Shown: in pieces, positions 2,803 to 61,987 of the stretch
How positions within the stretch are numbered: position 1 is the stretch's first letter
How the letters are laid out: each line of letters opens with the position of its first letter
Assembly: GCA_038065095.1 (NCBI GenBank)
Contig: JBBTRR010000001.1
Location: 113,546-177,545 of the forward strand
Direction of reading: 5' to 3'
DNA: 64,000 nucleotides
Source: Patescibacteria group bacterium
GTDB lineage: Bacteria > Patescibacteriota > Minisyncoccia > JACQLN01
Position numbers and translations under genes: made by a program
The notes under the pieces: model-generated
What the model was told of the DNA's origin: nothing
The model's database searches: none
Seen by the model: the letters and a program-made list of their open reading frames with translations, nothing else

Positions 2803-3108
2803 AAGCCCTCCTTCTAATTTTGAGAATTTTTATTAAGGAACTTTATTAAATTAAAGCAGTCTAAATTTTTCTTGTCAAAGTTGTCAATTTTTATGCATTT
2901 ATCTGTGGATATCCGTTTTAAAAGTTAAGGGTGTAAAATGAATTTAAGTAGTTTAAATTTTATAAAAAAATGCGGTTCGGATTTTTTGCAATTAGCCCTT
3001 GAGTTTAGAAGTCTCTGGTAGTTTTGGTCGTCTGGAGACTTTTTGATTCAAGGTTTTCCCTTGAATAAGGTGGATTCTGGTTGCAAGCTAACGAATCTCA
3101 TAAAAAAT

Positions 3109-5946
3109 ATGGGAAATTCTTCTATTGCCGATCGCGTCAAACGCGACGAGTCGGGCAAACGCGATTCGTCAACGAATAAAATTTTTTTAGTTAAAAGATA
3201 TTTTACTAAGCCCAATGTTCACCCTTACGATGAATTTAAATGGGAAAAGCGAGATATAAAAATATCTGGCCCGCAAGGCACGTTGGTAGATGCTAAAAAT
3301 TTAGAATTTCCAAAATTTTGGTCTCATAACGCGGCTAGTATTACGGGTTCCAAATATTTTCGAGGTTCGGGCGATAAACGTGAAACTTCGGTTAAGCAGA
3401 TGATAAACCGTGTGGTAAAAAATATTACTGCATGGGGCGAATCGTCTGGTTATTTTAATACAAAAACCGAAGCCAAAGCGTTTGAAGACGAGCTAACTCA
3501 TTTGTTGGTTTACCAAAAATCGGCGTTTAATAGCCCTGTTTGGTTTAATGTGGGTATAAAAGAAAAGCCACAGTGTTCGGCTTGTTTTATTTTAAGCGTA
3601 GACGATAGTATGGAATCTATAATGGATTGGATTTCTACCGAAGCTAGAATTTTTAAAGGAGGTTCGGGGGCTGGTATAAATTTATCGGCATTACGTTCTT
3701 CAAAGGAACCATTGTCGCATGGTGGTTTTTCTTCTGGCCCAGTTTCTTTTATGCGTGGAGCGGATTCGGTAGCGGGCATGATAAAATCTGGTGGTGCTAC
3801 ACGCCGTGCCGCTAAAATGGTTTTGTTAAATATAGATCATCCCGATGTAATGGAATTTATTCGTTGCAAAGCCGAAGAAGAAAAAAAAGTTAGGGCTTTT
3901 ATATCCTCTGGTTACAATATGCAAAATTTGAACGAGCCAGCTTGGTCATCTATTCAATATCAAAATGCCAATAATTCTGTGCGCTTGTCGGACGAATTCC
4001 TAAAAGCTGTAGAGGAAGACAAAGAATGGAGTACTAAATTTATTACCACCGGAAAAATTGCCAACACTTATAAAGCTCGCGAACTTATGCATGAAATTTC
4101 TTTGGCGGCTTGGGAATGTGCTGATCCTGGGGTGCATTATAAAACCACAATAGATAAATGGCATACGTCTTCTAACACTGGGCCAATCAATGGCTGTAAC
4201 CCATGCAGTGAATATATGCACCTAGATAATTCGGCCTGCAATTTATCTTCTATAAATTTAATTCATTTCTTGGCCGAAGATGGAAGTTTTAAGGTTAAAG
4301 ATTTTGTTCAAGCGGTAGATGTTATGATTTTGGCACAAGAAATTATTGTAGGGCATTCTTCGTATCCAACTCCAAAAATAGAAGAAACCGCACACAATTT
4401 TAGAGAATTAGGTTTAGGTTTTACAAACTTGGGCGGATTATTAATGGCTAAAGCTTTGGCTTACGATTCTAACGAGGCTCGGGCTTGGGCGGGTGCTATA
4501 ACTGCGCTTATGACCGGCGAAGCTTATAGATTATCGGCAGTGATGGCTTCAAAAATTGGTGCACATAATGGCTACGCCATAAACAAAGAACCTCAATTAA
4601 AAGTTATCGGTATGCATCGCGATAAAGTAAAAGAAATAAATCCAAAGGCAATGGATGATAAAAAACTTTTAAAAACTGCGGGTGACACTTGGGTGGAAGC
4701 ATTTAATTTGGCTAAAAAACATGGGGTTAGAAATTCTCAAGTAACTGTTATTGCACCAACTGGCACGATTGCCTTAATGATGGATTGCGCTTGTACAGGT
4801 GTTGAACCTTTATTTGCCCCATTAATTTATAAACAACTTGTAGGTGGTGGTTATATGAAATTTGTGGCCGACACTATTCCTTTGGCTTTAAAAAAACTTG
4901 GATATTCTACAAGCCAGAACGAAGAAATAATGAAATATATAGAAGAAAAAGGTATTGTGGAAGGTGCGCCAAATTTAAAAGAGGAACACTTGGCAATTTT
5001 TGATTGCGCAGTTAAGCCGGCCGCTGGCACAAGATCGATTCATTGGCAGGGTCACGTTAAAATGGTGGCGGCGGTTCAACCGTTTATTTCGGGTGCGATT
5101 TCTAAAACATTTAATATGGACGAAGGAACCACTGTGGAAGAAATTCAAGAAGCTTACATAATGGGTTGGAAATTGGGCTTAAAAGCTTTTGCGGTTTACC
5201 GAGATGGTTGTAAAGCGGCTCAACCTTTATCTACTAAGAAAAAGGAAAAAGATTCTACATCGATTGAAGCCAAAGCAGAGGCCGAGGTTAAGACTGTTAA
5301 TGTTGTACCACAACAAAGAAAACTTCCAGCTACTCGTCTTTCCGAAACTCATAAGTTTACAATTGCGGGGCATCAAGGTTTCTTAACGCATAGTATATAC
5401 GATGACGGCACGCTTGCCGAAATATTTATTCGTATTGCTAAACAAGGTTCAACTTTAGCCGGATTGTTAGATACATTCGCTATTTCTGTTTCTATGGCGT
5501 TGCAACACGGCGTGCCTTTAAAAAAATTATGTCACCAATTTATACACGGGCGTTACGAGCCGATGGGTTTTACCGAAAACGCCAATATTCCAATGGTGAG
5601 TTCCATAACCGATTATATTTTTAAATATTTAGCTTTAAGATTTTTACAGGCCGATGATTTAGCTGAATTTGGTTTAGATTCTGCCAATAGAATAGAAACT
5701 CATATGCCTTCCATTAAAGATAATTCATCCGAAGCAAGTGGCTTGATTATGGAGAGTTTAGCGGCTAAAGAACCTGTGGTGGTTGCAACAGTTGCCCAAC
5801 CCGAGGTTGGTCAGCCTAGGGCTGAAAAAACAGTTGGTGTAATTTATGCGGGAACCGTCTGCAAACTTTGCGGTGGTATGATGATTCGCACTGGCACTTG
5901 CTTAACCTGCAGGCAGTGTGGAGAAGCGAATGGGGGGTGTTCCTAG
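3109..5946 (+). CDS. nrdJ: Class II (adenosylcobalamin-dependent) ribonucleoside-triphosphate/diphosphate reductase with a C-terminal Cys-rich zinc-ribbon tail
   Basis: RNR hallmarks read from the translation: SACFIL, the active-site loop NPCSEY, and GLGFTNLG. It is a single ~945-aa chain with no separate beta subunit nearby. The C-terminus is CKLCGGMMIRTGTCLTCRQCG. The ORF could start at 3043, but the ATG at 3109 is preferred. Confidence 0.9.
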   Translation: MGNSSIADRVKRDESGKRDSSTNKIFLVKRYFTKPNVHPYDEFKWEKRDIKISGPQGTLVDAKNLEFPKFWSHNAASITGSKYFRGSGDKRETSVKQMINRVVKNITAWGESSGYFNTKTEAKAFEDELTHLLVYQKSAFNSPVWFNVGIKEKPQCSACFILSVDDSMESIMDWISTEARIFKGGSGAGINLSALRSSKEPLSHGGFSSGPVSFMRGADSVAGMIKSGGATRRAAKMVLLNIDHPDVMEFIRCKAEEEKKVRAFISSGYNMQNLNEPAWSSIQYQNANNSVRLSDEFLKAVEEDKEWSTKFITTGKIANTYKARELMHEISLAAWECADPGVHYKTTIDKWHTSSNTGPINGCNPCSEYMHLDNSACNLSSINLIHFLAEDGSFKVKDFVQAVDVMILAQEIIVGHSSYPTPKIEETAHNFRELGLGFTNLGGLLMAKALAYDSNEARAWAGAITALMTGEAYRLSAVMASKIGAHNGYAINKEPQLKVIGMHRDKVKEINPKAMDDKKLLKTAGDTWVEAFNLAKKHGVRNSQVTVIAPTGTIALMMDCACTGVEPLFAPLIYKQLVGGGYMKFVADTIPLALKKLGYSTSQNEEIMKYIEEKGIVEGAPNLKEEHLAIFDCAVKPAAGTRSIHWQGHVKMVAAVQPFISGAISKTFNMDEGTTVEEIQEAYIMGWKLGLKAFAVYRDGCKAAQPLSTKKKEKDSTSIEAKAEAEVKTVNVVPQQRKLPATRLSETHKFTIAGHQGFLTHSIYDDGTLAEIFIRIAKQGSTLAGLLDTFAISVSMALQHGVPLKKLCHQFIHGRYEPMGFTENANIPMVSSITDYIFKYLALRFLQADDLAEFGLDSANRIETHMPSIKDNSSEASGLIMESLAAKEPVVVATVAQPEVGQPRAEKTVGVIYAGTVCKLCGGMMIRTGTCLTCRQCGEANGGCS

Positions 5947-6450: not shown

Positions 6451-7023
6451 ATGCTAATTGTAGTCACTGGTAATGGTAAGGGAAAGACCACGAGCGCACT
6501 TGGGCAGGCTTTAAGAGTGGTTGGCGAGGGCGGAAAGGCTGTAATGTATCAGTTTATAAAAGGGCCGTGGGTTTCGGGCGAGGATGTCCTAATCTCAAAA
6601 ATCAAATCTCAAAAATCAAAAATAAAAGACAATAAATTATTAGAGGGTCTGGAGAATTGGTATGATTTTGACATTATTAAGGGTGGCAAAGGTTTTGTTG
6701 GAATATTGGGCGATTCGTATCCAAAATCAGTTCACATCAAGGCGGCCGAAGAAACTTGGGGTGTTGCCAAAAAAGCCATAGAATCTAAAAAATACCAGTT
6801 AGTTGTTTTAGACGAAATTAATGTAGCTATAAAATTAGGCTTGTTAAAAATAAGCCCAGTATTTTCTTTTTTGAAAAAATATCGTGGAATTGTTAATATT
6901 ATGGTTACAGGGCGAGACGCCCACAATAAGCTTATAGAACTTGCTGATTTGGTTTCGGAGGTTAAAGAAATAAAGCACCCTTTTAATAAAGGTGTTTCAG
7001 CCAGAAAGGGAGTGGAGTACTAA
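6451..7023 (+). CDS. cobO: Cob(I)yrinic acid a,c-diamide / corrinoid adenosyltransferase (CobA/CobO/BtuR family)
   Basis: P-loop VVTGNGKGKTTSALGQALR..QFIKG and the C-terminal VLDEIN...TGR pattern are characteristic of CobA. The gene contains a 14-mer x2 tandem repeat at 6591-6618. Confidence 0.85.
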   Translation: MLIVVTGNGKGKTTSALGQALRVVGEGGKAVMYQFIKGPWVSGEDVLISKIKSQKSKIKDNKLLEGLENWYDFDIIKGGKGFVGILGDSYPKSVHIKAAEETWGVAKKAIESKKYQLVVLDEINVAIKLGLLKISPVFSFLKKYRGIVNIMVTGRDAHNKLIELADLVSEVKEIKHPFNKGVSARKGVEY

Positions 7024-40207: not shown

Positions 40208-41050
40208 ATGCTAAAAAACAAAAAGGCAGTAATTACTGGTGGTGGGAGGGGTATTGGTAAATCCATAGCTCAACATTTTTTGTTGGAGGAAGCAGAAGTT
40301 TTGTTAGTAGCTCGAACTCTAGCCGAGTTAGAAAAAACACGTGACGAATTAACTCCTTTGGGTCATGTAGAAATTTTATCAGCAGATGTATCTGTAGAGG
40401 ATGATGTTGAAAAGATATCTGCTAGGGTTTTGAATTTGTGGGGCGGTGTTGATATTTTAGTAAACGTCGCCGCTATTCAAGGGCCGATAGGGCACATAAC
40501 GGATGTAAATATAGTCGAATGGCGAAAGGTCATAGAGGTGAACCTCATTGGTACCTTTTTAATGATTCGGGCTTTGGTACCTTTTATGAAAGAGCTTGGC
40601 AAAGGTAAGATTGTCAACTTTGCTGGTGGTGGTGAGGGTCCTTATACTAACTTTTCGGCTTATGTAGCTTCTAAAGGCGGTATAGTGCGTTTAACGGAGA
40701 CTGTGGCAGCAGAGTTGAAAGACTTTAATATCGATATAAATGCTATAGCTCCTGGAGCTGTTAATACGCAAATGTTGAGAGAGGTTCTTGAAGCGGGTCC
40801 AGTTAATGTAGGTCGTGATACTTACGAAAAATGTTTGAAGCAAAAAGAGACAGGAGGAATATCGCCAGATAAAGCAGCCGAGTTAGTTGTGTTTTTGTCC
40901 AGTGAAGCTTCTAATGGCTTAACTGGAAAAGTTATATCTGCTATTTGGGATGATTACCATAATTTTCCTCAGCATCTTAAAGAAATTATGGGAACAGATA
41001 TATATTCTTGGCGGCGGATAAAACCAAATGATCGCGGTTACGAGTGGTAA
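40208..41050 (+). CDS. SDR-family oxidoreductase
   Basis: VITGGGRGIGKSIAQ (TGxxxGxG) and YVASKGGIVRL (YxxxK). Confidence 0.8.
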   Translation: MLKNKKAVITGGGRGIGKSIAQHFLLEEAEVLLVARTLAELEKTRDELTPLGHVEILSADVSVEDDVEKISARVLNLWGGVDILVNVAAIQGPIGHITDVNIVEWRKVIEVNLIGTFLMIRALVPFMKELGKGKIVNFAGGGEGPYTNFSAYVASKGGIVRLTETVAAELKDFNIDINAIAPGAVNTQMLREVLEAGPVNVGRDTYEKCLKQKETGGISPDKAAELVVFLSSEASNGLTGKVISAIWDDYHNFPQHLKEIMGTDIYSWRRIKPNDRGYEW

Positions 41051-41072
41051 AACAAATAAAGGAGGAGTAGCT

Positions 41073-41753
41073 ATGAAGCTATTCATTGATTCAGCAGATA
41101 TTGGTGAAATAGAGAAGTGGTTGTCTGCAGGTATTAGAGATGGAATTACTACGAACCCAACCTTGCTTAAGAAAGCTGGGGTGACGGATACTGTTTCGGC
41201 TTGGCGAGGGATTGTAGATCTTATTAAAAAATACTCGCTAACTCCCTTATCGTTAAGTGTGGAAGTTTTTAAGGATGATGCTGAAGGTATGGTTGAACAG
41301 GCTAAAGATTTTGTTAGTAAATTAAATTATCTCGGTACCACCATCAAAATTCCGATTTTAGGAACCGACGGCACAGATCGGCTTGAAGTAATAAGAATAT
41401 TGTCAGATTTGAAAATAGCTGTAAATTGTACAGCTTGTGTCCATTGGTTTCAGGCTTTTTCGGCGGCTAAGGCTGGTGCTAAATATGTTAGCTTACTTTA
41501 TTGTCGCAGTAACGATGCTGGCCTTGACGGTTTGGATATGATTACACGGACACGTCGATTGATAGACCAACATGGCTTAGTTTCCGAAATAATCATCGGT
41601 AGCATCAGACAGGCCAAGCAAGTTTTTCAAGTTTACGATGCGGGTGCGCATATTATAACTGTGCCACCCAAGTTCTTTCCAGAACTTTTGTTTCACCAAA
41701 AAAGTGTTGATACACAGAAACAGTTTTTGGCAGATGCGGGAGTGGAAGTTTAG
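41073..41753 (+). CDS. Transaldolase / fructose-6-phosphate aldolase family (short TalC/FSA-type)
   Basis: AGGAGG RBS. Product MKLFIDSADIGEIEKWLSAGIRDGITTNPTLLKKAG, about 226 aa. Confidence 0.75.
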   Translation: MKLFIDSADIGEIEKWLSAGIRDGITTNPTLLKKAGVTDTVSAWRGIVDLIKKYSLTPLSLSVEVFKDDAEGMVEQAKDFVSKLNYLGTTIKIPILGTDGTDRLEVIRILSDLKIAVNCTACVHWFQAFSAAKAGAKYVSLLYCRSNDAGLDGLDMITRTRRLIDQHGLVSEIIIGSIRQAKQVFQVYDAGAHIITVPPKFFPELLFHQKSVDTQKQFLADAGVEV

Positions 41754-42663: not shown

Positions 42664-42670
42664 TTTGATT

Positions 42671-50033: not shown

Positions 50034-50037
50034 TCCT

Positions 50038-50463: not shown

Positions 50464-50467
50464 TAAA

Positions 50468-51160: not shown

Positions 51161-51168
51161 ATACTAGG

Positions 51169-53192: not shown

Positions 53193-54113
53193 ATGGAAAA
53201 AAATTCAACTAAGCTTATGATATCTGTTATATTTCCAACCTATAACGAAGAGGGTAATGTAGGAGAACTTCATAAATTAAATAAAGAAACTTTAGATAAA
53301 ATTGGTTTACCTTATGAAATAATAATCGTAGATAATGGATCTAAAGATAATACTCTCGCTATTTTAAAGGGGCTTTCTCCTATTAAAATTATATCTTTGA
53401 CCAAAAACTTTGGACAAACAGCTGCATTGGAAATTGGGATTAATTCTGCTAAGGGAGACATGATTGTAATTATGGATGGTGATATGCAAAATGATCCGCG
53501 CGATATTCCCAAGTTACTATCAAAATTAGAAGAAGGCTATGATGTTGTTTCGGGTTGGAGAAAAGATAGGCACGATAATTTTATTAGAAAGGCTCATTCA
53601 TATTTAGCTAACTGGCTTACCAGAAAAATTTCTGGCCTCAACCTTCGTGATCATGCTTGTGCTTTAAAAATTTATCGAAAAGAGTTTTTAAAACAAATAA
53701 GATTATACGGTGTTCAGCATGTTTTTCTAGCGGCTCAAGTTTATGGATTTGGTGCTCGCATTGCAGAAGTAGAAGTTGTACATCATGCTAGAAAACACGG
53801 TTTATCCAAGCATCATTTTTTTGCTGGTATTAAGGCCATAGCAGATTTAATAATGGTCAGATTTTTGTCTCCCGATACTAGACCTTTTGTTTTTTTTGCT
53901 GGTTGCGGTTTTTGGATATGGTTTTTAGGTATCGTAAATGCAGTATTGGGTGCTATCTATGGAAGCCGTGGTTTTATTATAGTCGCTCTGATTTTAACTG
54001 GTTTAGGCTTTCTTTTATTTGTTTTGGGGTTTATGTCGGAGCTTTTAAGAAGAATTTATCTTGAATTAAGATCAGAAAGGCCAATCTTGGTAAAAGAAAT
54101 AATTGAACAATGA
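53193..54113 (+). CDS. GT2 polyprenyl-phosphate sugar synthase (ArnC/DPM1/GtrB-like), paralog 2
   Basis: ISVIFPTYNEEGNV, IIIVDNGSKD, IVIMDGDMQNDP, and C-terminal TM helices. It overlaps the downstream GT-C by 4 nt. Confidence 0.8.
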   Translation: MEKNSTKLMISVIFPTYNEEGNVGELHKLNKETLDKIGLPYEIIIVDNGSKDNTLAILKGLSPIKIISLTKNFGQTAALEIGINSAKGDMIVIMDGDMQNDPRDIPKLLSKLEEGYDVVSGWRKDRHDNFIRKAHSYLANWLTRKISGLNLRDHACALKIYRKEFLKQIRLYGVQHVFLAAQVYGFGARIAEVEVVHHARKHGLSKHHFFAGIKAIADLIMVRFLSPDTRPFVFFAGCGFWIWFLGIVNAVLGAIYGSRGFIIVALILTGLGFLLFVLGFMSELLRRIYLELRSERPILVKEIIEQ

Positions 54114-55948
54114 ATTTAATTAAAAAGTACTGGCTCATTGTTATGTTGTTGGCTCTTTTAGTTGGTGTTTTATATATCGCACCCCAAATCATAATTAAAA
54201 TGAGAGTAGAGGGTTTGGGACATAAATTTATTTTATTTCAATTCATTGAGTTGGCTGACGGTGGCGATGCTTATTTTCAATTTGCTAGAGAGATTTATGA
54301 AGGTCATTTTCCTCCTGGAGATTTATTCTCTGACAAAAATTTACCGAATATTTATCCTTGGTTACCCCCGCTTTTTTTTGGTTTTTTAATTAAAATTCTT
54401 AAAGATATAAATTTAGCCTATATAGCTGCTAATTTTATTTTTCCAGCACTTTTTTTTACATTATTCTATTTTTTAGGGCAGGTTATTTTTAAAAAAAATA
54501 AATTATGGTCTTTATTTCTTGCTTTGGTGGCTGTCTTAACCCCGATGCCGCTTTTGGCAGACAGAATGTTTTTTAGTTTTAAATTATTTGGTGATATTTT
54601 TTTAAAAAATTTTTATCCTGAAGTTAAGACTATCTTGCCTACTCTTTACTTTTCTAGAGCTGATTATCCTCTTCTTACTCACATTTTTTATTTGCCAGCT
54701 ATAATCACTCTCTTTATTTTTTGGCGTAGACCTGGGTTTAAAACGGCGATGTTGGCTGGTTTTACAGGAGGATTATTAGCTTACGTTTATTTTCATAAGT
54801 GGGTATATTGGATGGTTGTGTTAGGTTTCCTTTTTTTATTATCTATATTTTTTCTAAAAAAAGAAACCAAAAGATTACAACTTTTTTTAGTTTTAGGTTT
54901 TACCACCATCTTAACTAGTATTCCTTATTTTATAAATTATTTTAGATTAGCCAGCTTCAATGGTTCTAAGGATTTAATACAAAGATTATCTCTTGAAGTG
55001 GGGAGGTCGGTAAATTTATCTGTTTGGCCTCAATATATAATTTATTTTTCTTTGGCGGTATTAGTTTATTTGATTTATTTTAAAAAAGATTTACCATTAA
55101 CCATTTTGTATTGGTCGTTTTTATTAGCAGCTTTTTTTGTTTGGAATATTCAGGTTATAATCGGTTTTGTTCCGCACTCCGATCACTGGCCAAGGGCAAT
55201 AAATCCCTTGATTTTTTTAGTTATTTTTGATTTGGCTTATAATTTAGTCCAAAGAATAATAAAGCGAGTGCCCACATTAAACAGGGTCTTTATTTTTAGC
55301 ATGGTTTTATTGATGGTTTTATTGGTCTTTAAAAAAACGATAAACGCAGTTAAATTTTTAGAAGTCCCAAATGATCAAATAATTTCTAACTATACACTAC
55401 CAGAGAGTGTTTTAGATTCTTATTCTTGGATTGAAAAAAACTATAGCGAACCTATTGTGATTTCGCCTTCTTTTATATCATCTATTTATCTTTCTGCTTT
55501 TACTTCTAGTCGTCCTTTTTTGCCATGGGGTGGCGTTAGTCCTATGTCTAATTACTCTTTAGAAGAGTTATTTTTGAAATCTAATAAGAATTTTTATATA
55601 CCAAAAAACATTTTTACAGAAAGGCTCGAGAAAAATGGTTTGCCGTGTACTAAAAAATGTAATTTGCTCTATGTTAATGCAAATTTTAAAGACACTAGAC
55701 TTTATTTATATCAACTTTATTTTATGGATAAAAATAATACGCAAAATAGAGATATTCCTGCATATAAAATCGAAGAATTATCTCAACGTTATGATAAACT
55801 AGAAACCAGTTGGAAAAAAACAGGGGCTGATTTGGTATATCTTGGTCCATGGGAGAATATTTTTAATGGTTCTATTTTAAAAAATGATAAAGATCTATCT
55901 CTTGTTTATTCTAATAAAGAAGTGGAGATTTATAAAATTATAAAATGA
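54110..55948 (+). CDS. GT-C fold membrane glycosyltransferase (ArnT/PMT-like; polyprenyl-P-sugar dependent), intact 612-aa copy
   Basis: About 12-13 TM helices. Loop-1 motif ADGGDAYFQFAREIYEGHFPPGD. C-terminal periplasmic domain. Translationally coupled to the upstream GT2. Confidence 0.65.
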   Translation: MNLIKKYWLIVMLLALLVGVLYIAPQIIIKMRVEGLGHKFILFQFIELADGGDAYFQFAREIYEGHFPPGDLFSDKNLPNIYPWLPPLFFGFLIKILKDINLAYIAANFIFPALFFTLFYFLGQVIFKKNKLWSLFLALVAVLTPMPLLADRMFFSFKLFGDIFLKNFYPEVKTILPTLYFSRADYPLLTHIFYLPAIITLFIFWRRPGFKTAMLAGFTGGLLAYVYFHKWVYWMVVLGFLFLLSIFFLKKETKRLQLFLVLGFTTILTSIPYFINYFRLASFNGSKDLIQRLSLEVGRSVNLSVWPQYIIYFSLAVLVYLIYFKKDLPLTILYWSFLLAAFFVWNIQVIIGFVPHSDHWPRAINPLIFLVIFDLAYNLVQRIIKRVPTLNRVFIFSMVLLMVLLVFKKTINAVKFLEVPNDQIISNYTLPESVLDSYSWIEKNYSEPIVISPSFISSIYLSAFTSSRPFLPWGGVSPMSNYSLEELFLKSNKNFYIPKNIFTERLEKNGLPCTKKCNLLYVNANFKDTRLYLYQLYFMDKNNTQNRDIPAYKIEELSQRYDKLETSWKKTGADLVYLGPWENIFNGSILKNDKDLSLVYSNKEVEIYKIIK

Positions 55949-56745
55949 GTAAAAATATTTTGTTAAAATTTAAAAAGATTCCATTAAAAATTGTTGATGA
56001 AAAACCTTTATTTATTCCAGAAGAAGATTTTAAAAATATTGAAGAGGGTCTACATTCTGGTTTTTTAAATAGATTTAAGACTTTTCTCAAGAGATTTCCA
56101 CAAATTTATTCTTTTATTTTTTATTTTATAGCCCCAGCAATTTTTCTTGGCCGAGAACCAAAATCAATATTTAGCGTTCTTAATAAAGATAGTTTGATTA
56201 TAGATTTGGGCTCTGGTAATCGCAGACTTAGCAAGAATATTGTAAATGTAGATATCCATCCATGGTCAGAAGTAGATATTTTGGCCGATGCCCACGATTT
56301 GCCTTTTGAAGATAACTCTGTTGATGGAGTTGTTCTTTCTTGGGTGATAGAGCATATGGCTGACCCTTTAAAAGTAGTATCGGAAATACATAGGGTCCTT
56401 AAAAAGGGTGGCTATTTTTATCTCTCAACCAATTTTATAACTCCCTACCATCCATCTCCAAAGGATTATTATCGCTGGACCGCTGAAGGTTTAGGGGTAT
56501 TGTTAAAAGATTTTAATGTTTTAGAACTAAAACCTCACGTTGGTCCAACCTGTGCTCTCTTATCTGTTTTGCAAGAATGGTTGTCTTTGGTTTTATCTTT
56601 TAATATAAAAATATTAAAAGATTTTTTATGGATATTTTTTGTGGTAGTAACCTCACCATTAAAATTTTTGGATCTAATCTTTATTCATTATAAATCAGCG
56701 GATATTATAACCGCAGGCTTTTATGTTATTGCCAAAAAAGGATAA
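55945..56745 (+). CDS. SAM-dependent methyltransferase (Methyltransf_11-like) with hydrophobic segments
   Basis: IIDLGSGNRRL and DGVVLSWVIEHMADPLKVVSEIHRVLKKGGYFY. Confidence 0.65.
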   Translation: MSKNILLKFKKIPLKIVDEKPLFIPEEDFKNIEEGLHSGFLNRFKTFLKRFPQIYSFIFYFIAPAIFLGREPKSIFSVLNKDSLIIDLGSGNRRLSKNIVNVDIHPWSEVDILADAHDLPFEDNSVDGVVLSWVIEHMADPLKVVSEIHRVLKKGGYFYLSTNFITPYHPSPKDYYRWTAEGLGVLLKDFNVLELKPHVGPTCALLSVLQEWLSLVLSFNIKILKDFLWIFFVVVTSPLKFLDLIFIHYKSADIITAGFYVIAKKG

Positions 56746-56799: not shown

Positions 56800-57822
56800 A
56801 TGCAGTTTATTCTAGGGTCCTCAGTAGCTCCAGTAGCTCCAGTGGTTACAGAAACACCGTTTCGTTTGCCGCTTGGAGGTGGTTCCACAGATTTGCCTTC
56901 ATACTACGAAAAGTACGGTGGTTTTATTTTTGGAGTTGCTATCGATTTTTATATTCATGTTTTTTTGAAGCGTTTAAGAATAGACCGACGTATTCAGTTT
57001 CATTACACTGCTTGTGAGACGGTAAACTGTTTACACGAAGTGCATCATGGTATAGGTCGCGAGGCATTAAGAATGGTTGGTATTGATAATTCCATTAGTG
57101 TGACATTTAATGCTGATTCTCCATCTGGTACTGGGCTCGGTTCTTCGGGGAGTTACGCTGTCGGCCTTTTAAATGGTCTTTATGCTTTGGAAGGAAAGAC
57201 TAAGGATCCAAGGTTTTTGGCAGAGAAAGCTTTTGAAATAACCACCAACTTGGGTTGGTGTGATGGTAAGCAAGATCCATATCTTGCGGCGTATGGTGGC
57301 TTTACGGTGCTTAATATTGACCAAAACGGTCATGTTGCGGTCTCTAAGCCAGATATAAGGGAATACACCATAGATCGCTTTTTAAGCCAGACCCTATTAT
57401 TTTATACCGGTACCAAAAGAGATGGACAAAGTGGTGATATTCTTAAAGAACAGGATGAACAACGTGTTTTAGAACTAAAGCATGGAACTAAAGAAATAGG
57501 ATTAAAAATTTTGGTAGCTTTTGAAAATGGCGATTTAGATGAGTTTGGCCGGTTGATGGATAAGCATTGGCATATTAAAAGACAGATGTCTGGCAAAATC
57601 AGTTCTGACAAGTTTGATGCCATTTACGAAATGGCAAAACAGGCTGGGGCTTTGGGTGGAAAATTGGTAGGCGCTGGCGGCGGTGGCTATTTTATTTTTT
57701 ACTGCCCCACGTCGCTTTCCAAGAGTCGTGTTTCTATTGCTTTAACAGAAGCTGGTTTGCAAAGAGCCGATTTCGGTATTGATTATAAGGGGTCTACGAC
57801 TGTAACCATACCAAGGATGTAG
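56800..57822 (+). CDS. GHMP-family sugar kinase (HddA / galactokinase / fucokinase-like)
   Basis: PSGTGLGSSGSYAVG (GHMP motif II) and KLVGAGGGGYFIFY (motif III). Confidence 0.75.
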   Translation: MQFILGSSVAPVAPVVTETPFRLPLGGGSTDLPSYYEKYGGFIFGVAIDFYIHVFLKRLRIDRRIQFHYTACETVNCLHEVHHGIGREALRMVGIDNSISVTFNADSPSGTGLGSSGSYAVGLLNGLYALEGKTKDPRFLAEKAFEITTNLGWCDGKQDPYLAAYGGFTVLNIDQNGHVAVSKPDIREYTIDRFLSQTLLFYTGTKRDGQSGDILKEQDEQRVLELKHGTKEIGLKILVAFENGDLDEFGRLMDKHWHIKRQMSGKISSDKFDAIYEMAKQAGALGGKLVGAGGGGYFIFYCPTSLSKSRVSIALTEAGLQRADFGIDYKGSTTVTIPRM

Positions 57823-57850
57823 ATATTCACTAAGTCTAGTTTAATAAAAA

Positions 57851-57882
57851 GACGAGCCAAAAACGGCCCGTCTTTTTTAGTG
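57851..57882 (+). terminator. Rho-independent terminator
   Basis: AAGACGAGCC-AAAAAC-GGCCCGTCTT followed by TTTT. Confidence 0.5.
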
Positions 57883-58007
57883 TACCAAAATTATCTTTTG
57901 ACAAACATAGTTAGTTAATTTATGGTTATACAATTGTGTTATGCACAATGTGTTTTGTACCTTAAAAATATGCATACTAACTCATTCCTAAATATAAGGA
58001 GTTTTTT

Positions 58008-59546
58008 ATGTCAAGAAAAGTTCTTATTATATATCCACCAAACCAGTTAAACCCCACTGAAGCTCCTCGTCCAGAAGGGTCATTGGGCCCTCTTTACTTA
58101 GCTTCGGCTTTGGAAAATGCAGGTATAGAAACTGATCTGGTGGATGCTTCTGTAGGAACGGAAGACGATAAGCTGGAAGACACTTTTAACAACCCAGTGA
58201 TGCAACTAAACGGTCTTATAAGGATTGGTATGTCTTTTGATCGTATCCGTGAGTTTATCGCTTTAGGCGGTTACGATGTGGTAGCGATTCATTCAAATTT
58301 TACTCCCCAGACCCGTATGGTTTTGGAAACAGCCAAAATAATAAAGGAGATCAATCCAGAAATTTTGGTTATCAGTGGAGGGGTAAATGCTCGGCATATT
58401 CTGGAACGTCTTTTGGGTATAGGTTTTGTTGATTTAATCTGCATCACCGAAGGAGAAAGGATTATTGTTAAAATAGTTAAACAGTGGAGGCTTAATCGAT
58501 CATTTGACGGTGTAGATGGTGTTGTCTTTATGGAATCGGGCCGGTTGGTTTATCGGCCAGTAAATTCCGATAGTGTGGTCCAAAATTTAGACGAGTTGCC
58601 TGTGCCGGCGTGGCATAAATTGCCTTTGGCTAAATATGCCGAGATTACTTCTCCGCATGGCGATGTGGTTTTGAGTGAGAAATATATTTATGCTCCCATG
58701 ATGACTTCTCGCGGTTGCCCATTTAAATGTGCTTATTGCCATATATCGTTAGAAAAAGAAAAACATGACGATATTGGTAATCTAAGACTCAAGTCTGTGG
58801 ATCGCGTTATGCGTGAAATAGAAATTTTAAAATCTTTAGGTGTTACCAAGGTTTACATCGAAGATGATAGCTTGCTTGCCAAGAAAGCTCGCGTTAAAGA
58901 AATTTTTACACGCCTTTTGGGTGCTGGCTTAAAAATCGCCGATGTAAATGGTGTCAACCTTGTTCATCTTTTTGTAAGAGACAGAGCTACAGGAAAATTA
59001 AGGGTGGATAGAGATTATTTAGAGTTGCTCTGTGCATCTGGTTTTGATCAAATTAGTTTTCCTGTTGAATCCGGTGTTCAAAGGGTTTTGGATAAATATG
59101 CTACCGGTAAACTCGTTTTAGAAACAATGGACATAGCTGGGTTGGTAAGGGTCGCTTCCGATGTAGGTATTTCTTGTCCTGTCGGTATCATGATGGGTTT
59201 TCCAGATGAAACAGAGGCAGAGATTCTCCAAAGTGTGGAATTAGCAAAAAAGTTAGTTGATGCTGGAGCCAAGTATTGTTCTTTTTATATTCCCATTCCT
59301 TTTCCGGGTAGTCAGCTTTATCATATGGCTATTGCCGGTGGACATCTGGATGCAAATTTTGATCCAGACATTATGAACTGGCATCGGCCGGTTATGAAAA
59401 ACACTACCGTGCCGCCGGAAAGAGTTTTGGAACTTCGTGAATGGGCTTGGCGTTCGGTTAATCGAGATGACTATGTAGCTGAACGGTTGAGTAAAAACAT
59501 AGGTACAAGGTGGAGTTCTTTTAAGCCAGTTAGCGATGAAAATTAA
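58008..59546 (+). CDS. B12-binding radical SAM domain protein (class B radical SAM enzyme)
   Basis: N-terminal cobalamin-binding-like Rossmann domain, then TSRGCPFKCAYCH (C-x3-C-x2-C radical SAM cluster motif). 512 aa. It has its own promoter-like TTGACA/TATGGT upstream. Confidence 0.8.
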   Translation: MSRKVLIIYPPNQLNPTEAPRPEGSLGPLYLASALENAGIETDLVDASVGTEDDKLEDTFNNPVMQLNGLIRIGMSFDRIREFIALGGYDVVAIHSNFTPQTRMVLETAKIIKEINPEILVISGGVNARHILERLLGIGFVDLICITEGERIIVKIVKQWRLNRSFDGVDGVVFMESGRLVYRPVNSDSVVQNLDELPVPAWHKLPLAKYAEITSPHGDVVLSEKYIYAPMMTSRGCPFKCAYCHISLEKEKHDDIGNLRLKSVDRVMREIEILKSLGVTKVYIEDDSLLAKKARVKEIFTRLLGAGLKIADVNGVNLVHLFVRDRATGKLRVDRDYLELLCASGFDQISFPVESGVQRVLDKYATGKLVLETMDIAGLVRVASDVGISCPVGIMMGFPDETEAEILQSVELAKKLVDAGAKYCSFYIPIPFPGSQLYHMAIAGGHLDANFDPDIMNWHRPVMKNTTVPPERVLELREWAWRSVNRDDYVAERLSKNIGTRWSSFKPVSDEN

Positions 59547-59631
59547 TGTGTGGTAACCTCTGTTGTCTGTGGACAATAGGGGTTTTTTATTTTAATCTAA
59601 GTAAGTTAAAGACTGATTATAAATAAATATT

Positions 59632-60540
59632 ATGCGATTTGCTATTACAGGTGGGTGTGGTTTTATCGGCTCACAACTTTCTATACATCTTTTGGAGCTA
59701 GGCTATGATGTTAGAGTTATAGATAAAATTGCTATTGGATCTAGTCCTTACTGGAGTGGTTTTGATTACAGTAAAATAGATTATTGCGAAGTTGATATTT
59801 GTTCTCCAGGAGATATGGATGAATGTTTTAAAGATGTTGATTACGTTTTTCATTTAGCTAGCTATGCGCGAATTAAAGATTGTTTAGCTAATCCAAATTT
59901 AGCCCGAAAAATTAATGTTGGTGGTACGCTTAATGTTTTATTAGCAGCAGAAAAAAATAAGGTTAAACGTTTAGTGTATACCAGTTCATCTTCTGCTTAT
60001 GGAGATCAAGATAATTTGCCATGGAAAGAAGATATGCCAATTAAGCTTCTTAATCCGTATGCTTCTACTAAATATGCAGGCGAAATATTGTGCCAATTAT
60101 TTGGCGAAGCTAATCGCTTAGAAACTGTAAGCCTAAGATTATTTAATGTTTATGGTTCGGTGTCGGCGATTGAAGGAAAAGTTGATTGCCCGAGCGTGGT
60201 GGAAATTCTTTTGAAACAAAAAAGAAATGATCAAGCACTTACTATTATTGGAGATGGTAAACAAAAAAGAGATTTGGTTAATGTTAAAGATGTAGCCAAA
60301 GCTTTTGTTGCGGCTTCAACCAGTAAGCTAGTCGGGAAAGGAGAAGTTATTAATATTGGTTCTGGAAGTAATTATTCGGTATCAGAAATTGCTAACTGGA
60401 TAGGTGGAGAGACTACCAAATTAGATAATCGCTATGCTGAAGCTTATGAAACGCTGGCCGATATTTCTAAAGCCAAAGAGTTACTTAATTGGCAGCCCGA
60501 GCATAATCTTAAAGATTGGATTGAATCCAATAAAAAATAA
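59632..60540 (+). CDS. NAD-dependent sugar epimerase/dehydratase (extended SDR; GalE / UDP-sugar 4-epimerase-like)
   Basis: ITGGCGFIGSQL and YASTKYAGE (YxxxK). 302 aa. Confidence 0.8.
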   Translation: MRFAITGGCGFIGSQLSIHLLELGYDVRVIDKIAIGSSPYWSGFDYSKIDYCEVDICSPGDMDECFKDVDYVFHLASYARIKDCLANPNLARKINVGGTLNVLLAAEKNKVKRLVYTSSSSAYGDQDNLPWKEDMPIKLLNPYASTKYAGEILCQLFGEANRLETVSLRLFNVYGSVSAIEGKVDCPSVVEILLKQKRNDQALTIIGDGKQKRDLVNVKDVAKAFVAASTSKLVGKGEVINIGSGSNYSVSEIANWIGGETTKLDNRYAEAYETLADISKAKELLNWQPEHNLKDWIESNKK

Positions 60541-60552: not shown

Positions 60553-61560
60553 ATGTCTAATAAAGTTTTTTCCTTGGCGCTCGTGGGTGCGGGTGGTATT
60601 GCTTATAAATGGGTCAAAGCTATCAGTAAAGTTAAAAATTGTTCTTTAAGGTTGGTAGTAGATGTGGATATAAATAAAGCAGAATTACTTTCTAAAAATT
60701 ATAAAAATTGTGAACATACAGATAAGTTAAATGATGTTTTATCAAGATTGGATATAGATGCTGTCATAGTAGCAGTGCCCAATAGTATATCTGCCAAGAT
60801 CTCTAGAGAAATTATTAAGTCGGGTAAACATGTTTTATGTGAAAAACCAGGCGCTGTTAATTCCAAAGAATTAAAATCCATTATTTTAGAGGCTAAAAAA
60901 TATAAGAAAAATTTTATGGTCGGGTTTAATCATAGATTCCATCCAGCCTTTTTACAGGCAAAAGAAATTTTTGATAAAGGTGAAATAGGTGAAGCTATGT
61001 TTATAAATTCTAGATATGGTTTTGGTGGTCGGGAAAACTATAATAAAGAATGGCGTTTTAATAAAAAAATAAGCGGGGGCGGAGAAATAATTGACCAAGG
61101 TGTTCATATGATTGATATGGCCCGTTTATTTTTAGGAGAATTTAATGAAGTTAAGGCTTATACGCCTAATCTTTTTTGGGGTGGAAATGTGGAAGATAAT
61201 GGTTTTATACTTTTAAAAACCATAAAAAAACAAATAGCTGCAATTCATGTTAGCTGGACTAATTGGAAATGGATTCATTCTTTTGAAATTATGGGTACAT
61301 TAGGCTATTTACGTATAGATGGTTTGGATCAGCGTTATAACGGGCCGGAGAAATTAACTATAGGATATCGTGATCTTTTATTTAAAAAATCTCCACAAGA
61401 AAAAGTTATAATATTTAAAAACGAAAAACCCGAAGATTCTTTCACTAGACAGTTAAAAGAATTTTTATCTGCTATAAGTGAAGATAGAAATTCTGTTCCA
61501 GATAGTCGTGATGCTTACGAAGTTTTAAAAATAGTTGATAAAATTTATGAAAAAAAATAA
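60553..61560 (+). CDS. Gfo/Idh/MocA-family NAD(P)-dependent sugar oxidoreductase
   Basis: LALVGAGGIAYKWV Rossmann, and the family's HVLCEKP motif. Confidence 0.8.
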   Translation: MSNKVFSLALVGAGGIAYKWVKAISKVKNCSLRLVVDVDINKAELLSKNYKNCEHTDKLNDVLSRLDIDAVIVAVPNSISAKISREIIKSGKHVLCEKPGAVNSKELKSIILEAKKYKKNFMVGFNHRFHPAFLQAKEIFDKGEIGEAMFINSRYGFGGRENYNKEWRFNKKISGGGEIIDQGVHMIDMARLFLGEFNEVKAYTPNLFWGGNVEDNGFILLKTIKKQIAAIHVSWTNWKWIHSFEIMGTLGYLRIDGLDQRYNGPEKLTIGYRDLLFKKSPQEKVIIFKNEKPEDSFTRQLKEFLSAISEDRNSVPDSRDAYEVLKIVDKIYEKK

Positions 61561-61987
61561 AGGATTGGTTTTGGTTCTTGGTGGAGCTGGCTTTATAGGA
61601 TCTCATTTAGTAGACGCATTACTTAAAGATAATTATAGAGTTAGAGTATTAGACAACCTAGCCCCACCTACCCATAACGGCAAATTGCCCTCTTGGTTTA
61701 ACAAAAAAGCAGAATTTGTTAAAGGGGATGTTCGTAAGAGACAAGACTTGATTCGTGCTATGGTTGGGGTTGATTTTATTTTTCACTTGGCAGCCTATCG
61801 GATTAATATACCTAGACATCAAAGTATGGACATTTCAAAATTGAAATCATTAGGTTGGGCGCCCAATCATTTTATCGAAGAAAATGTTTCGGAGTATGTT
61901 GACTGGGTAAGGTCATTTCCTGAAGCAAAAGCTTTTTTTAAAAAAAGCCAAGTATCGATGGGGAAAAAGGGTATAATTAAGGTATAA
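61547..61987 (+). pseudogene. Internally deleted NAD-dependent epimerase/dehydratase remnant
   Basis: Has the N-terminal LVLGGAGFIGSHLV and a C-terminal tail (LKSLGWAP...), but lacks the catalytic S...YxxxK core. It is about 147 aa against an expected ~310. Confidence 0.5.

Follow-up and report, generated by a model that had tools for sequence, protein, structure and literature searches.

A class B-type radical SAM protein linked to heptose-type sugar genes in Patescibacteria and DPANN archaea may tailor a cell-surface sugar

Introduction

The question raised by this locus is what a radical SAM enzyme of apparently cobalamin-dependent type does among the sugar genes of a patescibacterium, and on which substrate it acts. 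The gene lies in a stretch of DNA of 64 kb, referred to here as the window. The original prediction for this DNA was that the enzyme binds B12 and that the glycan of the organism contains a C-methylated or otherwise radical-modified sugar. A shortage of information about physiological substrates is one of the main obstacles in the study of class B radical SAM enzymes, most of the characterized members of which are methylases (PMC9204698). Among class B enzymes, GenK, GenD1, MoeK5, Fom3, and OxsB use glycosides or nucleotide-linked compounds as substrates (PMC9204698). Epimerization, which had also been attributed to the class, is absent from the class B reactions listed in two reviews (PMC12931638, PMC9204698), and Fom3, which had been cited as a sugar-pathway example, acts on a cytidylylated phosphonate and not on a sugar (PMC9204698). 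A literature search for work that connects class B radical SAM enzymes with heptose or GDP-heptose, with the glycans of Patescibacteria/CPR, or with the nucleotide sugars of polysaccharides returned nothing relevant. The best overall explanation of the data presented here, with a probability of about 0.5, is that the protein is a class B enzyme of a conserved group that works inside a surface-glycan decoration module.

The Radical SAM Protein

The predicted open reading frame is real and intact (Table 1). It starts with an ATG codon and has a ribosome-binding site, AAGGAG, 7 nt 5' of the start. Both Pfam domains of the product exceed their curated cut-offs: PF02310 (B12-binding) covers residues 25–153 with 39.1 bits (cut-off 32.1) and PF04055 (Radical_SAM) covers residues 233–412 with 56.7 bits (cut-off 29.5). 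The profiles originally named for this protein were B12-binding_2 and Radical_SAM; the latter matches, while the cobalamin domain belongs to PF02310 and not to B12-binding_2. Homologues reach E values of ~1e-290, far from chance. The GCPFKCAYC motif was recovered as described, running from G236 to C244 at nucleotides 58713–58739, and its three cysteines are invariant in 39 orthologues and 103 more distant relatives. The AF2 model of the protein (pLDDT 87.7, pTM 0.87) features a high-confidence barrel that resembles radical SAM structures. The CX3CX2C motif and the partial TIM barrel of the model place the predicted product in the radical SAM superfamily.

With a GC content of 0.41 and a GC3 of 0.33, the genes for the radical SAM protein and the kinase are at the level of the core genes for FtsZ and NrdJ. 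Horizontal transfer was considered as a source of locally raised GC and was dropped, since these two genes are core-like, whereas the glycosyltransferase genes stand out by their high AT content. No cobalamin or SAM riboswitch was detected at gathering thresholds 5' of the radical SAM gene or nrdJ, and the matches at E ≤ 1 were at chance level.

Table 1. Features of the radical SAM locus and related genes in the window.
Feature	Position	Strand	Basis and remarks
NrdJ, class II adenosylcobalamin-dependent ribonucleotide reductase	3043..5946	+	NF005122 1303.8 bits (cut-off 859); Pfam
CobA/CobO/BtuR-type ATP:corrinoid adenosyltransferase	6451..7023	+	PF02572 177 bits (cut-off 25.7)
Short TalC/Fsa-type transaldolase or aldolase	41028..41753	+	PF00923; TIGR00875 131.7 bits (cut-off 245.95)
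ArnC-like GT2, putative polyprenyl-phosphate glycosyltransferase	53193..54113	+	PF00535
Polytopic membrane protein, 612 aa, candidate GT-C-type transferase	54110..55948	+	Start overlaps GT2 stop codon
Class I SAM-dependent methyltransferase	55945..56745	+	PF08241; syntenic in orthologue loci L001, L009, L026
GHMP-family sugar kinase, closest to HddA (D-glycero-D-manno-heptose-7-phosphate kinase)	56800..57822	+	PF00288, PF08544
Terminator-like hairpin and T-run, directly 3' of GHMP kinase gene	57846..57877	+	RNA fold -15.2 kcal/mol, z -4.35
Promoter-like TTGACA-17-TATGGT, 5' of radical SAM gene	57898..57926	+	Consensus scan, 10/12 matches; a pattern match, such sites showing no enrichment over shuffled sequence
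Radical SAM gene, class B type	58008..59546	+	512 aa; MEK7629067.1, labeled merely "radical SAM protein" at NCBI
N-terminal Rossmann-like cobalamin-binding domain, residues ~1-165	58008..58502	+	
β3-α3 loop A93-I-H-S96-N97-F98-T99-P100-Q101	58284..58310	+	"Downstream Cbl-binding motif", GxSxL type; Asn97 at Leu position
Gly-Gly motif G124-G125, end of β4	58377..58382	+	Dimethylbenzimidazole tail pocket; strand 120-124 in model
Gly-Glu motif E148-G149-E150, start of α5	58449..58457	+	Helix 149-163 in model
[4Fe-4S]/SAM cluster motif C237-x3-C241-x2-C244, then invariant H245	58716..58739	+	Sequence, alignments
Terminator-like hairpin, 13 pairs, and T-run, directly after radical SAM stop	59555..59584	+	-17.5 kcal/mol, z -5.10
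Extended SDR, nucleotide-sugar epimerase/dehydratase type	59632..60540	+	PF01370 175 bits; GalE-like and LegB-like matches below cut-off
Gfo/Idh/MocA NAD(P) oxidoreductase	60553..61560	+	PF01408, PF22725

The Cobalamin-Binding Domain

The original prediction would have fallen had the N-terminal domain lacked a cobalamin fold; the fold is present and carries three published cobalamin-contact motifs. The motifs and their structural elements are defined in PMC9204698, and on these elements the protein has a GxSxL-type loop with Asn at the Leu position, a GG motif, a GE motif, and a β1-α1 loop of 16 residues (10–25) that contains no His. The two glycines of the GG motif are invariant in the orthologue alignment and are found in 103/103 and 102/103 distant relatives. 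E148 and E150 are also invariant, and the E148-G149-E150 segment aligns with the EGE of OxsB, TokK, and CysS.

The β3-α3 loop lies between a strand (residues 89–95) and a helix (residues 102–115) of the AF2 model, and S96, N97, F98, and T99 are invariant or nearly so among the orthologues. The distant relatives have G-[IV]-[ST]-x-[LIM]-F-[TS]-x-Q at this loop, so that its form is kept, with Asn in the orthologues in place of the Leu-type residue. N97 is found in 37 of the 39 orthologues versus 3 of the 103 distant relatives, most of which have Leu, Ile, or Met. In the profile alignment to the PDB, N97 aligns with N186 of OxsB, which anchors a water molecule as the lower ligand (PMC13331322, PMC9204698). 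The register of the TokK alignment would make F98 the Leu equivalent; this assignment was dropped in favor of N97, since the canonical register, G-x-[ST]-x-[LIM]-F, is seen in an alignment of 102 distant relatives.

The N-terminal Rossmann-like cobalamin domain marks the predicted product as class B-type, and we infer that it uses cobalamin. AprD4 and ArsL are class B look-alikes that bind no cobalamin, and membership in the class B sequence network therefore does not guarantee binding (PMC12931638).

Relationship to Known Class B Enzymes

Judged by sequence, the protein is a member of a large unnamed, uncharacterized orthologous group that is found mainly in Patescibacteria, with further members among DPANN archaea and in a few other phyla; one orthologue lies on a MAG contig of Pelagibacteraceae (L039). 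Placement in one of the named families was dropped, as every NCBIfam class B model scores far under its cut-off. The top match is NF038361 (SD_1168, a methyltransferase family; 132.3 bits, cut-off 575, residues 4–448), followed by BchE (TIGR02026; 89.4 bits, cut-off 481) and HpnJ (TIGR03471; 87.1 bits, cut-off 578). The match to the AprD4 model, NF033070 (48.4 bits, cut-off 500), is confined to residues 157–464. The NCBIfam and Pfam scans gave no match to a GenK or Fom3 model, only to other class B models, all below cut-off. The names "BchE" and "YgiQ" that JGI automatically gives to homologues were dropped because the class B models score so far below their cut-offs. Among solved structures, OxsB gives the best profile match (E 2.9e-11), in an alignment that includes the N-terminal domain, and the identity to any solved class B member is 16–19%.

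The protein shares the Rossmann cobalamin domain, the CX3CX2C barrel, and the C-terminal cap with GenK, GenD1, MoeK5, Fom3, TokK, CysS, MgmA, and TsrM. The GxSxL-type, GG, and GE motifs and the His-free β1-α1 loop are also those of the class B methyltransferases; however, the residue beneath the corrin is Asn in place of a Leu, Trp, or Arg. As in the case of the class B methyltransferases for glycosides or nucleotide-linked substrates, of which GenK and Fom3 were compared by description, the gene is located in a sugar-tailoring cluster with a Gfo/Idh/MocA oxidoreductase nearby. GenD1 is said to pair with such an oxidoreductase, GenD2. The context differs in that these methyltransferases belong to actinomycete antibiotic pathways, whereas the group described here appears with primary cell-surface glycan genes in Patescibacteria and DPANN archaea.

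SD_1168 (Sden_1168) aligns over its full length, although with a score far below the cut-off. In OxsB, too, Asn stands in for the Leu of the downstream cobalamin motif; this enzyme aligns through the cobalamin domain and acts on a nucleotide-bound sugar, as would the protein described here. OxsB features an extra N-terminal domain and needs an HD-domain partner, OxsA. With 744 aa it is longer than the 512 aa protein, which has no HD-domain neighbor among the annotated window genes. SD_1168 has been proposed to carry out C- or P-methylation, and its own physiological substrate is not known (PMC9204698). There are no phosphonate genes at the radical SAM locus.

Genomic Context

The GHMP kinase, SDR epimerase, and Gfo/Idh/MocA oxidoreductase originally reported as neighbors are all in place. 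The kinase scores 143.4 bits on the HddA model NF049969 (cut-off 600), and the best matches of the oxidoreductase are the inositol 2-dehydrogenase and UDP-GlcNAc 3-dehydrogenase types, below cut-off. The best NCBIfam match of the GT2 is ArnC (NF007986; 160.6 bits, cut-off 529). The 612 aa membrane protein features ~10 hydrophobic segments within its first 410 aa and a C-terminal soluble domain. It has no match in Pfam, NCBIfam, or PDB sequence searches, shows weak similarity to a PMT_2 protein encoded at the orthologue locus L003 (E 3e-4), and has paralogues at 35720–37177 (−) and in the 10 kb downstream (L079). Several class I methyltransferases are already present in the cluster.

Of the heptose-type set, the window locus has nothing beyond the kinase and transaldolase genes and, downstream, one for a nucleotidyltransferase. 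No GmhA-like (SIS) or GmhB-like (HAD) gene was found in the 64 kb window (E ≤ 1e-2) or in the 10 kb downstream, and the full four-enzyme GDP-heptose pathway (HddA/GmhA/GmhB/HddC) is not present at the window locus. The link to heptose therefore rests on the family and not on this locus.

In the family the linkage is conserved. At 28 of 37 non-redundant orthologue loci, versus 1/10 and 0/4 loci in two more distant clades, a distance of 10 kb or less separates the radical SAM gene from at least three of the four genes for an HddA-like kinase, a GmhA-like isomerase, a GmhB-like phosphatase, and a transaldolase. Counted singly over the same distance, the 37 loci contain a GHMP kinase in 32 cases, a SIS protein in 30, a HAD protein in 26, a transaldolase in 31, and a GT2 in 32. 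The recurring order is [NTP] rSAM GT2 (Gfo-)DAO HAD GHMP SIS TAL MT, the locus L018 is one with the full set (TAL, SIS, GHMP, HAD, NTP), and the ArnC-like GT2 is the commonest immediate neighbor of the radical SAM gene in many loci. The linkage to sugar-phosphate genes survives repeated shuffling of gene order and spans bacterial and archaeal phyla. Precursor-peptide or lipid-synthesis genes do not recur near the orthologues in the loci compared. The best family matches of the partner proteins are HddA, GmhA, GmhB, Fsa/TalC, and ArnC; all of the partners are far under the equivalog cut-offs, and the sugar may therefore not be a canonical heptose. The original prediction overlooked this family-wide link, from which the substrate can be proposed far more specifically.

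The orthologue loci encode the same enzyme classes as the GDP-D-glycero-α-D-manno-heptose pathway and the lincosamide GDP-octose pathway, namely a transaldolase, SIS isomerase, GHMP kinase, HAD phosphatase, nucleotidyltransferase, SDR epimerase, and Gfo/Idh/MocA oxidoreductase. The canonical heptose pathway is not known to include a radical SAM enzyme, and all scores at the orthologue loci are far below the heptose equivalog cut-offs. The Lmb enzymes (LmbR/N/P/K/O, then LmbM/L/Z), compared by listed function, are of the same classes, and PMC4351081 lists no radical SAM enzyme among the functions of the Lmb sugar pathway. The dedicated transaldolase is the distinctive Lmb feature that the orthologue loci have in common with that pathway. 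The Lmb transaldolase, LmbR, makes octulose-8-P from ribose-5-P. The ArnC-like GT2, translationally coupled to a membrane protein with ~10 TM segments, resembles the Arn-type (ArnC/ArnT) or GtrB/GT-C systems; however, the membrane protein has no GT-C profile match and only the weak PMT_2 match.

Proposed Function

In many ultra-small bacteria and archaea, the genes of this family are located in a module that makes and exports a seven- or eight-carbon surface sugar, which suggests that the radical SAM enzyme probably modifies that sugar. In the proposed pathway, a GmhA-like isomerase would act on a ketose phosphate, which may be sedoheptulose-7-P or an octulose phosphate supplied by the transaldolase of the cluster, and the adjoining HddA-like GHMP kinase would phosphorylate the isomerized sugar phosphate at C1. 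Dephosphorylation by the GmhB-like phosphatase would be followed by nucleotide activation, and the activated higher-carbon sugar would be tailored by the SDR, Gfo/Idh/MocA, or FAD oxidoreductases together with the radical SAM enzyme. The ArnC-like GT2 would then transfer the sugar to polyprenyl phosphate, and on the outside of the cell a teichoic-acid-like polymer would receive it through the GT-C-like membrane protein.

In the tailoring step, the [4Fe-4S] cluster held by C237, C241, and C244 would cleave SAM reductively, and the resulting 5'-deoxyadenosyl radical would take a hydrogen from an unactivated carbon of the sugar. Methylcobalamin, bound base-off and His-off in the N-terminal domain, would most probably then give its methyl group. 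Radical tailoring of an activated sugar of heptose or octose type for a surface polymer is the somewhat favored function. C-methylation is the leading guess for the reaction and is put forward tentatively, at less than even odds. A C-methylated or otherwise radical-modified sugar in the glycan, as originally proposed, is plausible from the sequence data.

The proposal has in its favor the class B precedents on glycosides and nucleotide-linked substrates, and the closest curated family, SD_1168, is a methyltransferase. Counting against it are the best curated score, 132 bits versus 575 for NF038361, the presence of Asn97 at the position of N186 in OxsB, a non-methylating ring-contraction enzyme, and the several class I methyltransferases of the cluster. 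Also counting against it, methylating and non-methylating class B enzymes are inseparable by sequence or structure (PMC12931638).

Alternative Functions

In one alternative, the enzyme would catalyze a different cobalamin-dependent reaction, such as ring contraction (OxsB, HpnJ) or the C-C bond formation or oxidation of BchE, by which a sugar would be rearranged or oxidized. An unusual higher-carbon sugar would result, with a contracted ring, a carbocycle, or some other rearrangement. This is a rather unlikely function, less so than the others considered below. It draws on the near-exclusive occurrence of Asn97 in the orthologues, the best structural profile match being OxsB with its N-terminal domain, and the ranking of two non-methylases, BchE (89 bits) and HpnJ (87 bits), directly after SD_1168; several class I methyltransferases are also present in the clusters. 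However, characterized class B enzymes are mostly methylases (PMC9204698), one residue in a loop alignment at 17–18% identity is weak evidence, and OxsB differs in its length and its need for an HD-domain protein. A narrower form of the idea, in which the Asn-marked group rearranges, ring-contracts, or extends the carbon chain of a nucleotide-activated heptose or octose from the LmbR/N/P/K/O-like module without methylating it, is less likely still.

The SDR gene directly after the radical SAM gene would fit an enzyme that resembles AprD4, a radical SAM 1,2-diol dehydratase that needs no cobalamin. Such an enzyme would deoxygenate a sugar, with the exocyclic diol of a heptose as one candidate site, and the SDR would then act like AprD3 and reduce the ketone or aldehyde that is formed. 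AprD4 falls among the class B sequences and yet binds no cobalamin (PMC12931638). However, the alignments to AprD4 span only the radical SAM core (residues 156–451 by sequence, 230–469 by profile), and the N-terminal domain aligns to OxsB, TokK, CysS, and TsrM and not to AprD4. The match to NF033070 (48 bits versus 500) falls far short of the AprD4 family, PF02310 is above its gathering threshold, and the GG, GE, and β3-α3 loop residues are near-invariant, which would be unexpected in a vestigial domain; the family keeps all of its cobalamin-contact motifs. An AprD4-like function is therefore improbable. A substrate other than a sugar, such as the polyprenyl-phosphate carrier or another lipid, a polymer backbone, or a protein or peptide, is about as improbable; the position in the cluster would then reflect co-regulation only. 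Class B families that act on lipids (HpnR, HpnP, HpnJ, ladderane/lipid rSAMs) or peptides do match weakly in NCBIfam, the frequent immediate neighbor is a lipid-carrier GT2, and the window gene is flanked by terminator-like hairpins and has a promoter-like site of its own. On the other side are the linkage to sugar-phosphate activation, which outlasts gene-order shuffling across bacterial and archaeal phyla, and the lack of recurring precursor-peptide or lipid-synthesis genes nearby. Tailoring of a heptose- or octose-type sugar is the function preferred over these.

Corrinoid Use and Significance

The nrdJ and cobO genes that had been reported for this DNA segment were both found. NrdJ also passes TIGR02504 (574.9 bits, cut-off 399.95), and the adenosyltransferase falls narrowly under the NCBIfam cut-offs of TIGR00708 (161.6 versus 167.75) and NF004637 (173.2 versus 185). 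As the window encodes NrdJ and CobO, the organism is predicted to handle corrinoids; the two genes show corrinoid use and adenosylation and no more than that. Neither the annotated genes of the window nor those called in the 10 kb downstream, which together cover ~74 kb of the genome, include one for the synthesis or uptake of B12.

The genomic hint in this family is unusually explicit in that it points to an activated heptose- or octose-type substrate made by the adjoining genes and exported via an ArnC-like carrier step, and candidate substrates can therefore be synthesized and tested directly. An ordinary C-methyltransferase would be an incremental result. If the Asn-marked group were non-methylating and rearranged, contracted, or extended the activated sugar, the ultra-small episymbiotic cells of CPR and DPANN would have a previously unknown higher-carbon sugar on their surface and an envelope that depends on corrinoids scavenged from hosts or neighbors. 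If the proposed function is correct, a radical B12-dependent tailoring step would be part of cell-surface glycan biosynthesis and not of antibiotic pathways, and it would add a new envelope sugar in Patescibacteria and DPANN archaea. It would also be a second B12-dependent process, besides NrdJ, that ties these reduced organisms to an external supply of corrinoids.

Domain organization and distribution

The radical SAM protein features an N-terminal B12-binding domain and a radical SAM domain, both above the Pfam cut-offs, and its GCPFKCAYC motif spans G236-C244. Across the 39 orthologues as well as 103 relatives at greater distance, alignments showed C237, C241, and C244 to be invariant. An exact-sequence look-up determined that the existing annotation is only 'radical SAM protein' and that the adjoining GHMP kinase is annotated as 'galactokinase'. 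The top curated NCBIfam model is the SD_1168 family with 132 bits (cut-off 575), followed by BchE (89 bits), HpnJ (87 bits), and others, all far under threshold. Judged by sequence profiles, the protein belongs to no characterised family.

A word-indexed search found at least 543 homologues, the best 120 of which are all 55–85% identical and ~510 residues long, and an exhaustive search returned 246 cluster representatives at E ≤ 1e-30. The species-representative genomes bearing orthologues are mostly Patescibacteria, with further carriers in Pacearchaeota and Woesearchaeota (DPANN archaea) and in MAGs labelled Pelagibacteraceae, Nitrospirae, Elusimicrobiota, Dehalococcoidales, and 'Deltaproteobacteria'. 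The loci from the Pelagibacteraceae MAG (L039) and from Pacearchaeota and Woesearchaeota (L033/L042/L067) carry 50–53% identical orthologues with the same partner genes. The module on SAR11-binned and DPANN contigs reflects either horizontal spread among small-celled lineages or misbinning of some contigs. Locus L008 (ENA ERZ1300416 NODE_93, coverage 0.82) is a near-identical, error-ridden assembly of the window region with fragmented genes, from which the truncated 333-residue cluster representative P0012 originates.

The predicted cobalamin-binding domain

The AlphaFold2 model, computed from 39 sequences, has high confidence (pLDDT 87.7, pTM 0.87), and its top Foldseek matches are TsrM, MgmA, TokK, AprD4, and OxsB (E 1e-19 to 1e-15). 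AprD4 has the same fold, yet does not bind cobalamin (PMC12931638), so the fold alone is insufficient, and the protein was therefore examined for the contact motifs that structures of OxsB, TsrM, and TokK have defined (PMC9204698). Alignments and the model revealed that all four features are present, each on the correct structural element: a GxSxL-type loop after β3, an invariant Gly-Gly on β4 (G124-G125), a Gly-Glu at the start of α5 (E148-G149-E150), and a 16-residue β1-α1 loop without His. The N-domain of the family profile aligns to OxsB, TokK, CysS, and TsrM, and the alignment to AprD4 is limited to the radical SAM core. With the Foldseek matches and all contact motifs, the N-terminal domain is of the cobalamin-binding type, as originally predicted.

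The loop consensus in 102 distant relatives is the canonical GxSxL, G-[IV]-[ST]-x-[LIM]-F-[TS]-x-Q, and the Leu position is occupied by Asn (N97) in 37/39 orthologues versus 3/103 distant relatives. N97 aligns with OxsB N186, which holds in place the water that serves as lower ligand to the cobalt, and reviewers have termed this position a hotspot for tuning chemistry (PMC13331322, PMC9204698). In the wider clade GGxH is replaced by GGVN, and the third Cys is followed by a His that does not vary.

Conserved genomic context

Reference partner proteins were compared with 78 fetched loci by tblastn, and partners within 10 kb were counted in 37 non-redundant orthologue loci (≥50% identity, ≥12 kb flank). 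The partners are a HddA-like GHMP kinase (32/37), a GmhA-like SIS isomerase (30/37), a GmhB-like HAD phosphatase (26/37), a TalC/Fsa-type transaldolase (31/37), an ArnC-like GT2 (32/37), a FAD (DAO) oxidoreductase (21/37), and a Gfo/Idh/MocA protein (13/37). Three or more of the four sugar-phosphate genes are found in 28/37 orthologue loci, in 1/10 loci of the 40–42% identity clade, and in 0/4 below 30%. The repeated order is [NTP-transferase] radical SAM, GT2, (Gfo-)DAO, HAD, GHMP, SIS, transaldolase, methyltransferase, and the linkage persists despite inversions and shuffling. The top family matches of the partners are GmhA, GmhB, HddA, Fsa/TalC, and ArnC, all far under equivalog cut-offs.

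This gene set is the enzyme set of the GDP-glycero-manno-heptose pathway. Taken together with the dedicated transaldolase, an SDR epimerase, and the Gfo/Idh/MocA oxidoreductases, the set also mirrors the lincosamide GDP-octose route, which uses LmbR/N/P/K/O and then LmbM/L/Z (PMC4351081). Literature searches turned up no link between class B radical SAM enzymes and heptose, or between these enzymes and glycans of the orthologue-bearing organisms.

In many loci the GT2 is directly followed by a ~660-residue fusion of Gfo/Idh/MocA and DAO-type FAD oxidoreductase domains, which may form an oxidation-reduction (epimerase-like) pair acting on a carrier-linked or nucleotide sugar. In some orthologue loci (L002, L007, L033, L042) the cluster holds another B12-binding radical SAM gene that differs from the first; L002 has, besides, a GT9 gene of the heptosyltransferase type and a PfkB/cytidylyltransferase fusion resembling HldE.

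The locus in the window

In the window the module is reduced to the radical SAM gene, its GHMP kinase, SDR, and Gfo/Idh/MocA neighbours, the transaldolase, the GT2 with its coupled membrane protein, and a class I methyltransferase. The GHMP kinase, epimerase-type SDR, and Gfo/Idh/MocA neighbours expected from the original prediction were all found with Pfam and NCBIfam, as were NrdJ and a CobA/CobO-type adenosyltransferase. An NTP-transferase lies ~3 kb past the window end (L079, the fetched locus extending the window), and no SIS or HAD homologue was found in the window or 10 kb downstream. The nearest syntenic relatives (L001/L026 and L009, ~70% identity) retain SIS, transaldolase, and NTP-transferase genes downstream, with a NUDIX gene replacing HAD.

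Stable terminator-like hairpins flank the radical SAM gene on both sides and a promoter-like site lies upstream, so the gene may be transcribed on its own. This arrangement is unusual in a cluster that is otherwise tightly packed and co-directional. The base composition of the gene is like that of core genes and thus gives no sign of recent transfer. Between 38000 and 64000 the metabolic genes (UDP-sugar dehydrogenase, SDR, transaldolase, kinase, radical SAM) are core-like with GC 0.39–0.41, and the glycosyltransferase and membrane genes are far more AT-rich (0.28–0.34).

No B12 synthesis or uptake genes were seen in ~74 kb (window plus 10 kb downstream), nor was a cobalamin riboswitch in the regions searched within this part of the genome, including the 1.5-kb gap preceding nrdJ. 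This absence carries little weight for the genome outside that stretch, and the originally proposed reliance on scavenged corrinoids is conjectural. A pair made up of a HicA toxin and a small upstream ORF (1613-2070) is placed between ftsZ and nrdJ; the ORF has only a sub-threshold UPF0150/HicB-like match.

One large glycan cluster takes up the surrounding 26–64 kb, and several TagF-like genes in it suggest a teichoic-acid-like polymer. Within it, a carrier-protein-based module (47838-52182), also containing a MaoC dehydratase, a FabG-like SDR, and a GNAT-like protein, suggests addition of a glyceryl- or acyl-type substituent to the polymer. Past the window end, NeuB, NeuC-like, and CTP_transf_3 genes are followed by a Wzy_C/TPR protein; with these three genes the same region therefore encodes a nonulosonic-acid pathway. 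A 150-residue SDR seems to be what is left of a gene after an internal deletion, a 52-residue ORF resembling the C-terminus of the 612-residue membrane protein is probably a paralogue relic, and a 108-residue polysaccharide-deacetylase fragment seems to have arisen by duplication of the deacetylase gene, of which it would be a remnant copy.

Features of the window and of related loci
Feature	Position	Details
HicA toxin	1879-2070	PF07927, E 1.5e-10
NrdJ	3043-5946	NCBIfam equivalog, 1303.8 bits (cut-off 859)
CobA/CobO-type adenosyltransferase	6451-7023	Clear in Pfam; NCBIfam cut-offs narrowly missed
TagF-like CDP-glycerol glycerophosphotransferase-type genes (four)	33635-34987, 44509-45846, 46478-47854, 62255-63601	Weak to moderate PF04464
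Intact paralogues of 612-aa membrane protein	35720-37177(-), L079:11787-13604	Second one downstream of window
Transaldolase	41028-41753	Module gene
Polysaccharide deacetylase	42665-43606	
Deacetylase fragment	46144-46470	108 aa
PPTase	47838-48158	Decoration module
FkbH-domain protein	48155-49810	TIGR01686, 315 bits
Putative ACP-like ORF	49803-50033	76 aa, called by eye
ArnC-like GT2	53193-54113	Module gene
612-aa membrane protein	54110-55948	Module gene, ~10 TM segments, translationally coupled to GT2
GHMP kinase	56800-57822	Adjoining
Terminator-like hairpin	57846-57877	-15.2 kcal/mol, z -4.4
Radical SAM gene	58008-59546 (+)	512 aa, ATG start, AAGGAG ribosome-binding site 7 nt upstream
PF02310 (B12-binding)	residues 25-153	39.1 bits (cut-off 32.1)
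PF04055 (Radical_SAM)	residues 233-412	56.7 bits (cut-off 29.5)
Terminator-like hairpin	59555-59584	-17.5 kcal/mol, z -5.1
Extended SDR	59632-60540	Adjoining
Gfo/Idh/MocA protein	60553-61560	Nearby
150-aa SDR	61535-61987	N-terminal Rossmann part (residues 1-95) joined in frame to typical SDR C-terminal tail
Syntenic counterpart of 150-aa SDR	L001:12262-13398	378 aa
52-aa ORF	62055-62213	
NeuB, NeuC-like Epimerase_2, CMP-sugar synthetase (CTP_transf_3)	L079:18222-21288	~8-11 kb past window end
Gfo/Idh/MocA-DAO fusion	L018:12529-14514, L002:10272-12281	
Second B12-binding radical SAM gene	L002:1015-2742, L007:16505-17518	

Proposed chemistry

Given the domain architecture, the fold, the motifs for the cofactors, and the conserved linkage, all of which were observed, the enzyme would cleave SAM at its own [4Fe-4S] cluster; the 5'-deoxyadenosyl radical would then remove hydrogen from a carbon that is unactivated in a heptose- or octose-type sugar, nucleotide-activated or carrier-linked, with cobalamin participating in the second half-reaction. 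Methyl transfer from methylcobalamin is the leading, still tentative, chemistry (probability about 0.35–0.4) because methylases make up most of the class B enzymes characterised so far, among them those whose substrates are glycosides or nucleotide-linked (PMC9204698). Methylation is not rated higher because of the Asn97 signature and the affinities to OxsB, BchE, and HpnJ, which leave room for a non-methylating rearrangement, a less likely alternative. A cobalamin-independent dehydration like that of AprD4, whose NCBIfam model scores 48 bits (cut-off 500), is improbable, and a non-sugar substrate is similarly doubtful.

The original prediction holds in part: it is right on enzyme class and setting, and a C-methylated or radical-modified sugar in the glycan is plausible. 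Epimerisation, which had been named as a class B reaction, is absent from the reactions listed in reviews (PMC12931638, PMC9204698), and Fom3, offered as a sugar-pathway example, has a substrate that is not a sugar (PMC9204698). The radical SAM gene is a genuine, intact class B member from a widespread orphan orthologous group, for which this analysis contributes a specific hypothesis on the substrate that can be put to the test, along with the Asn that sets apart the lower face.
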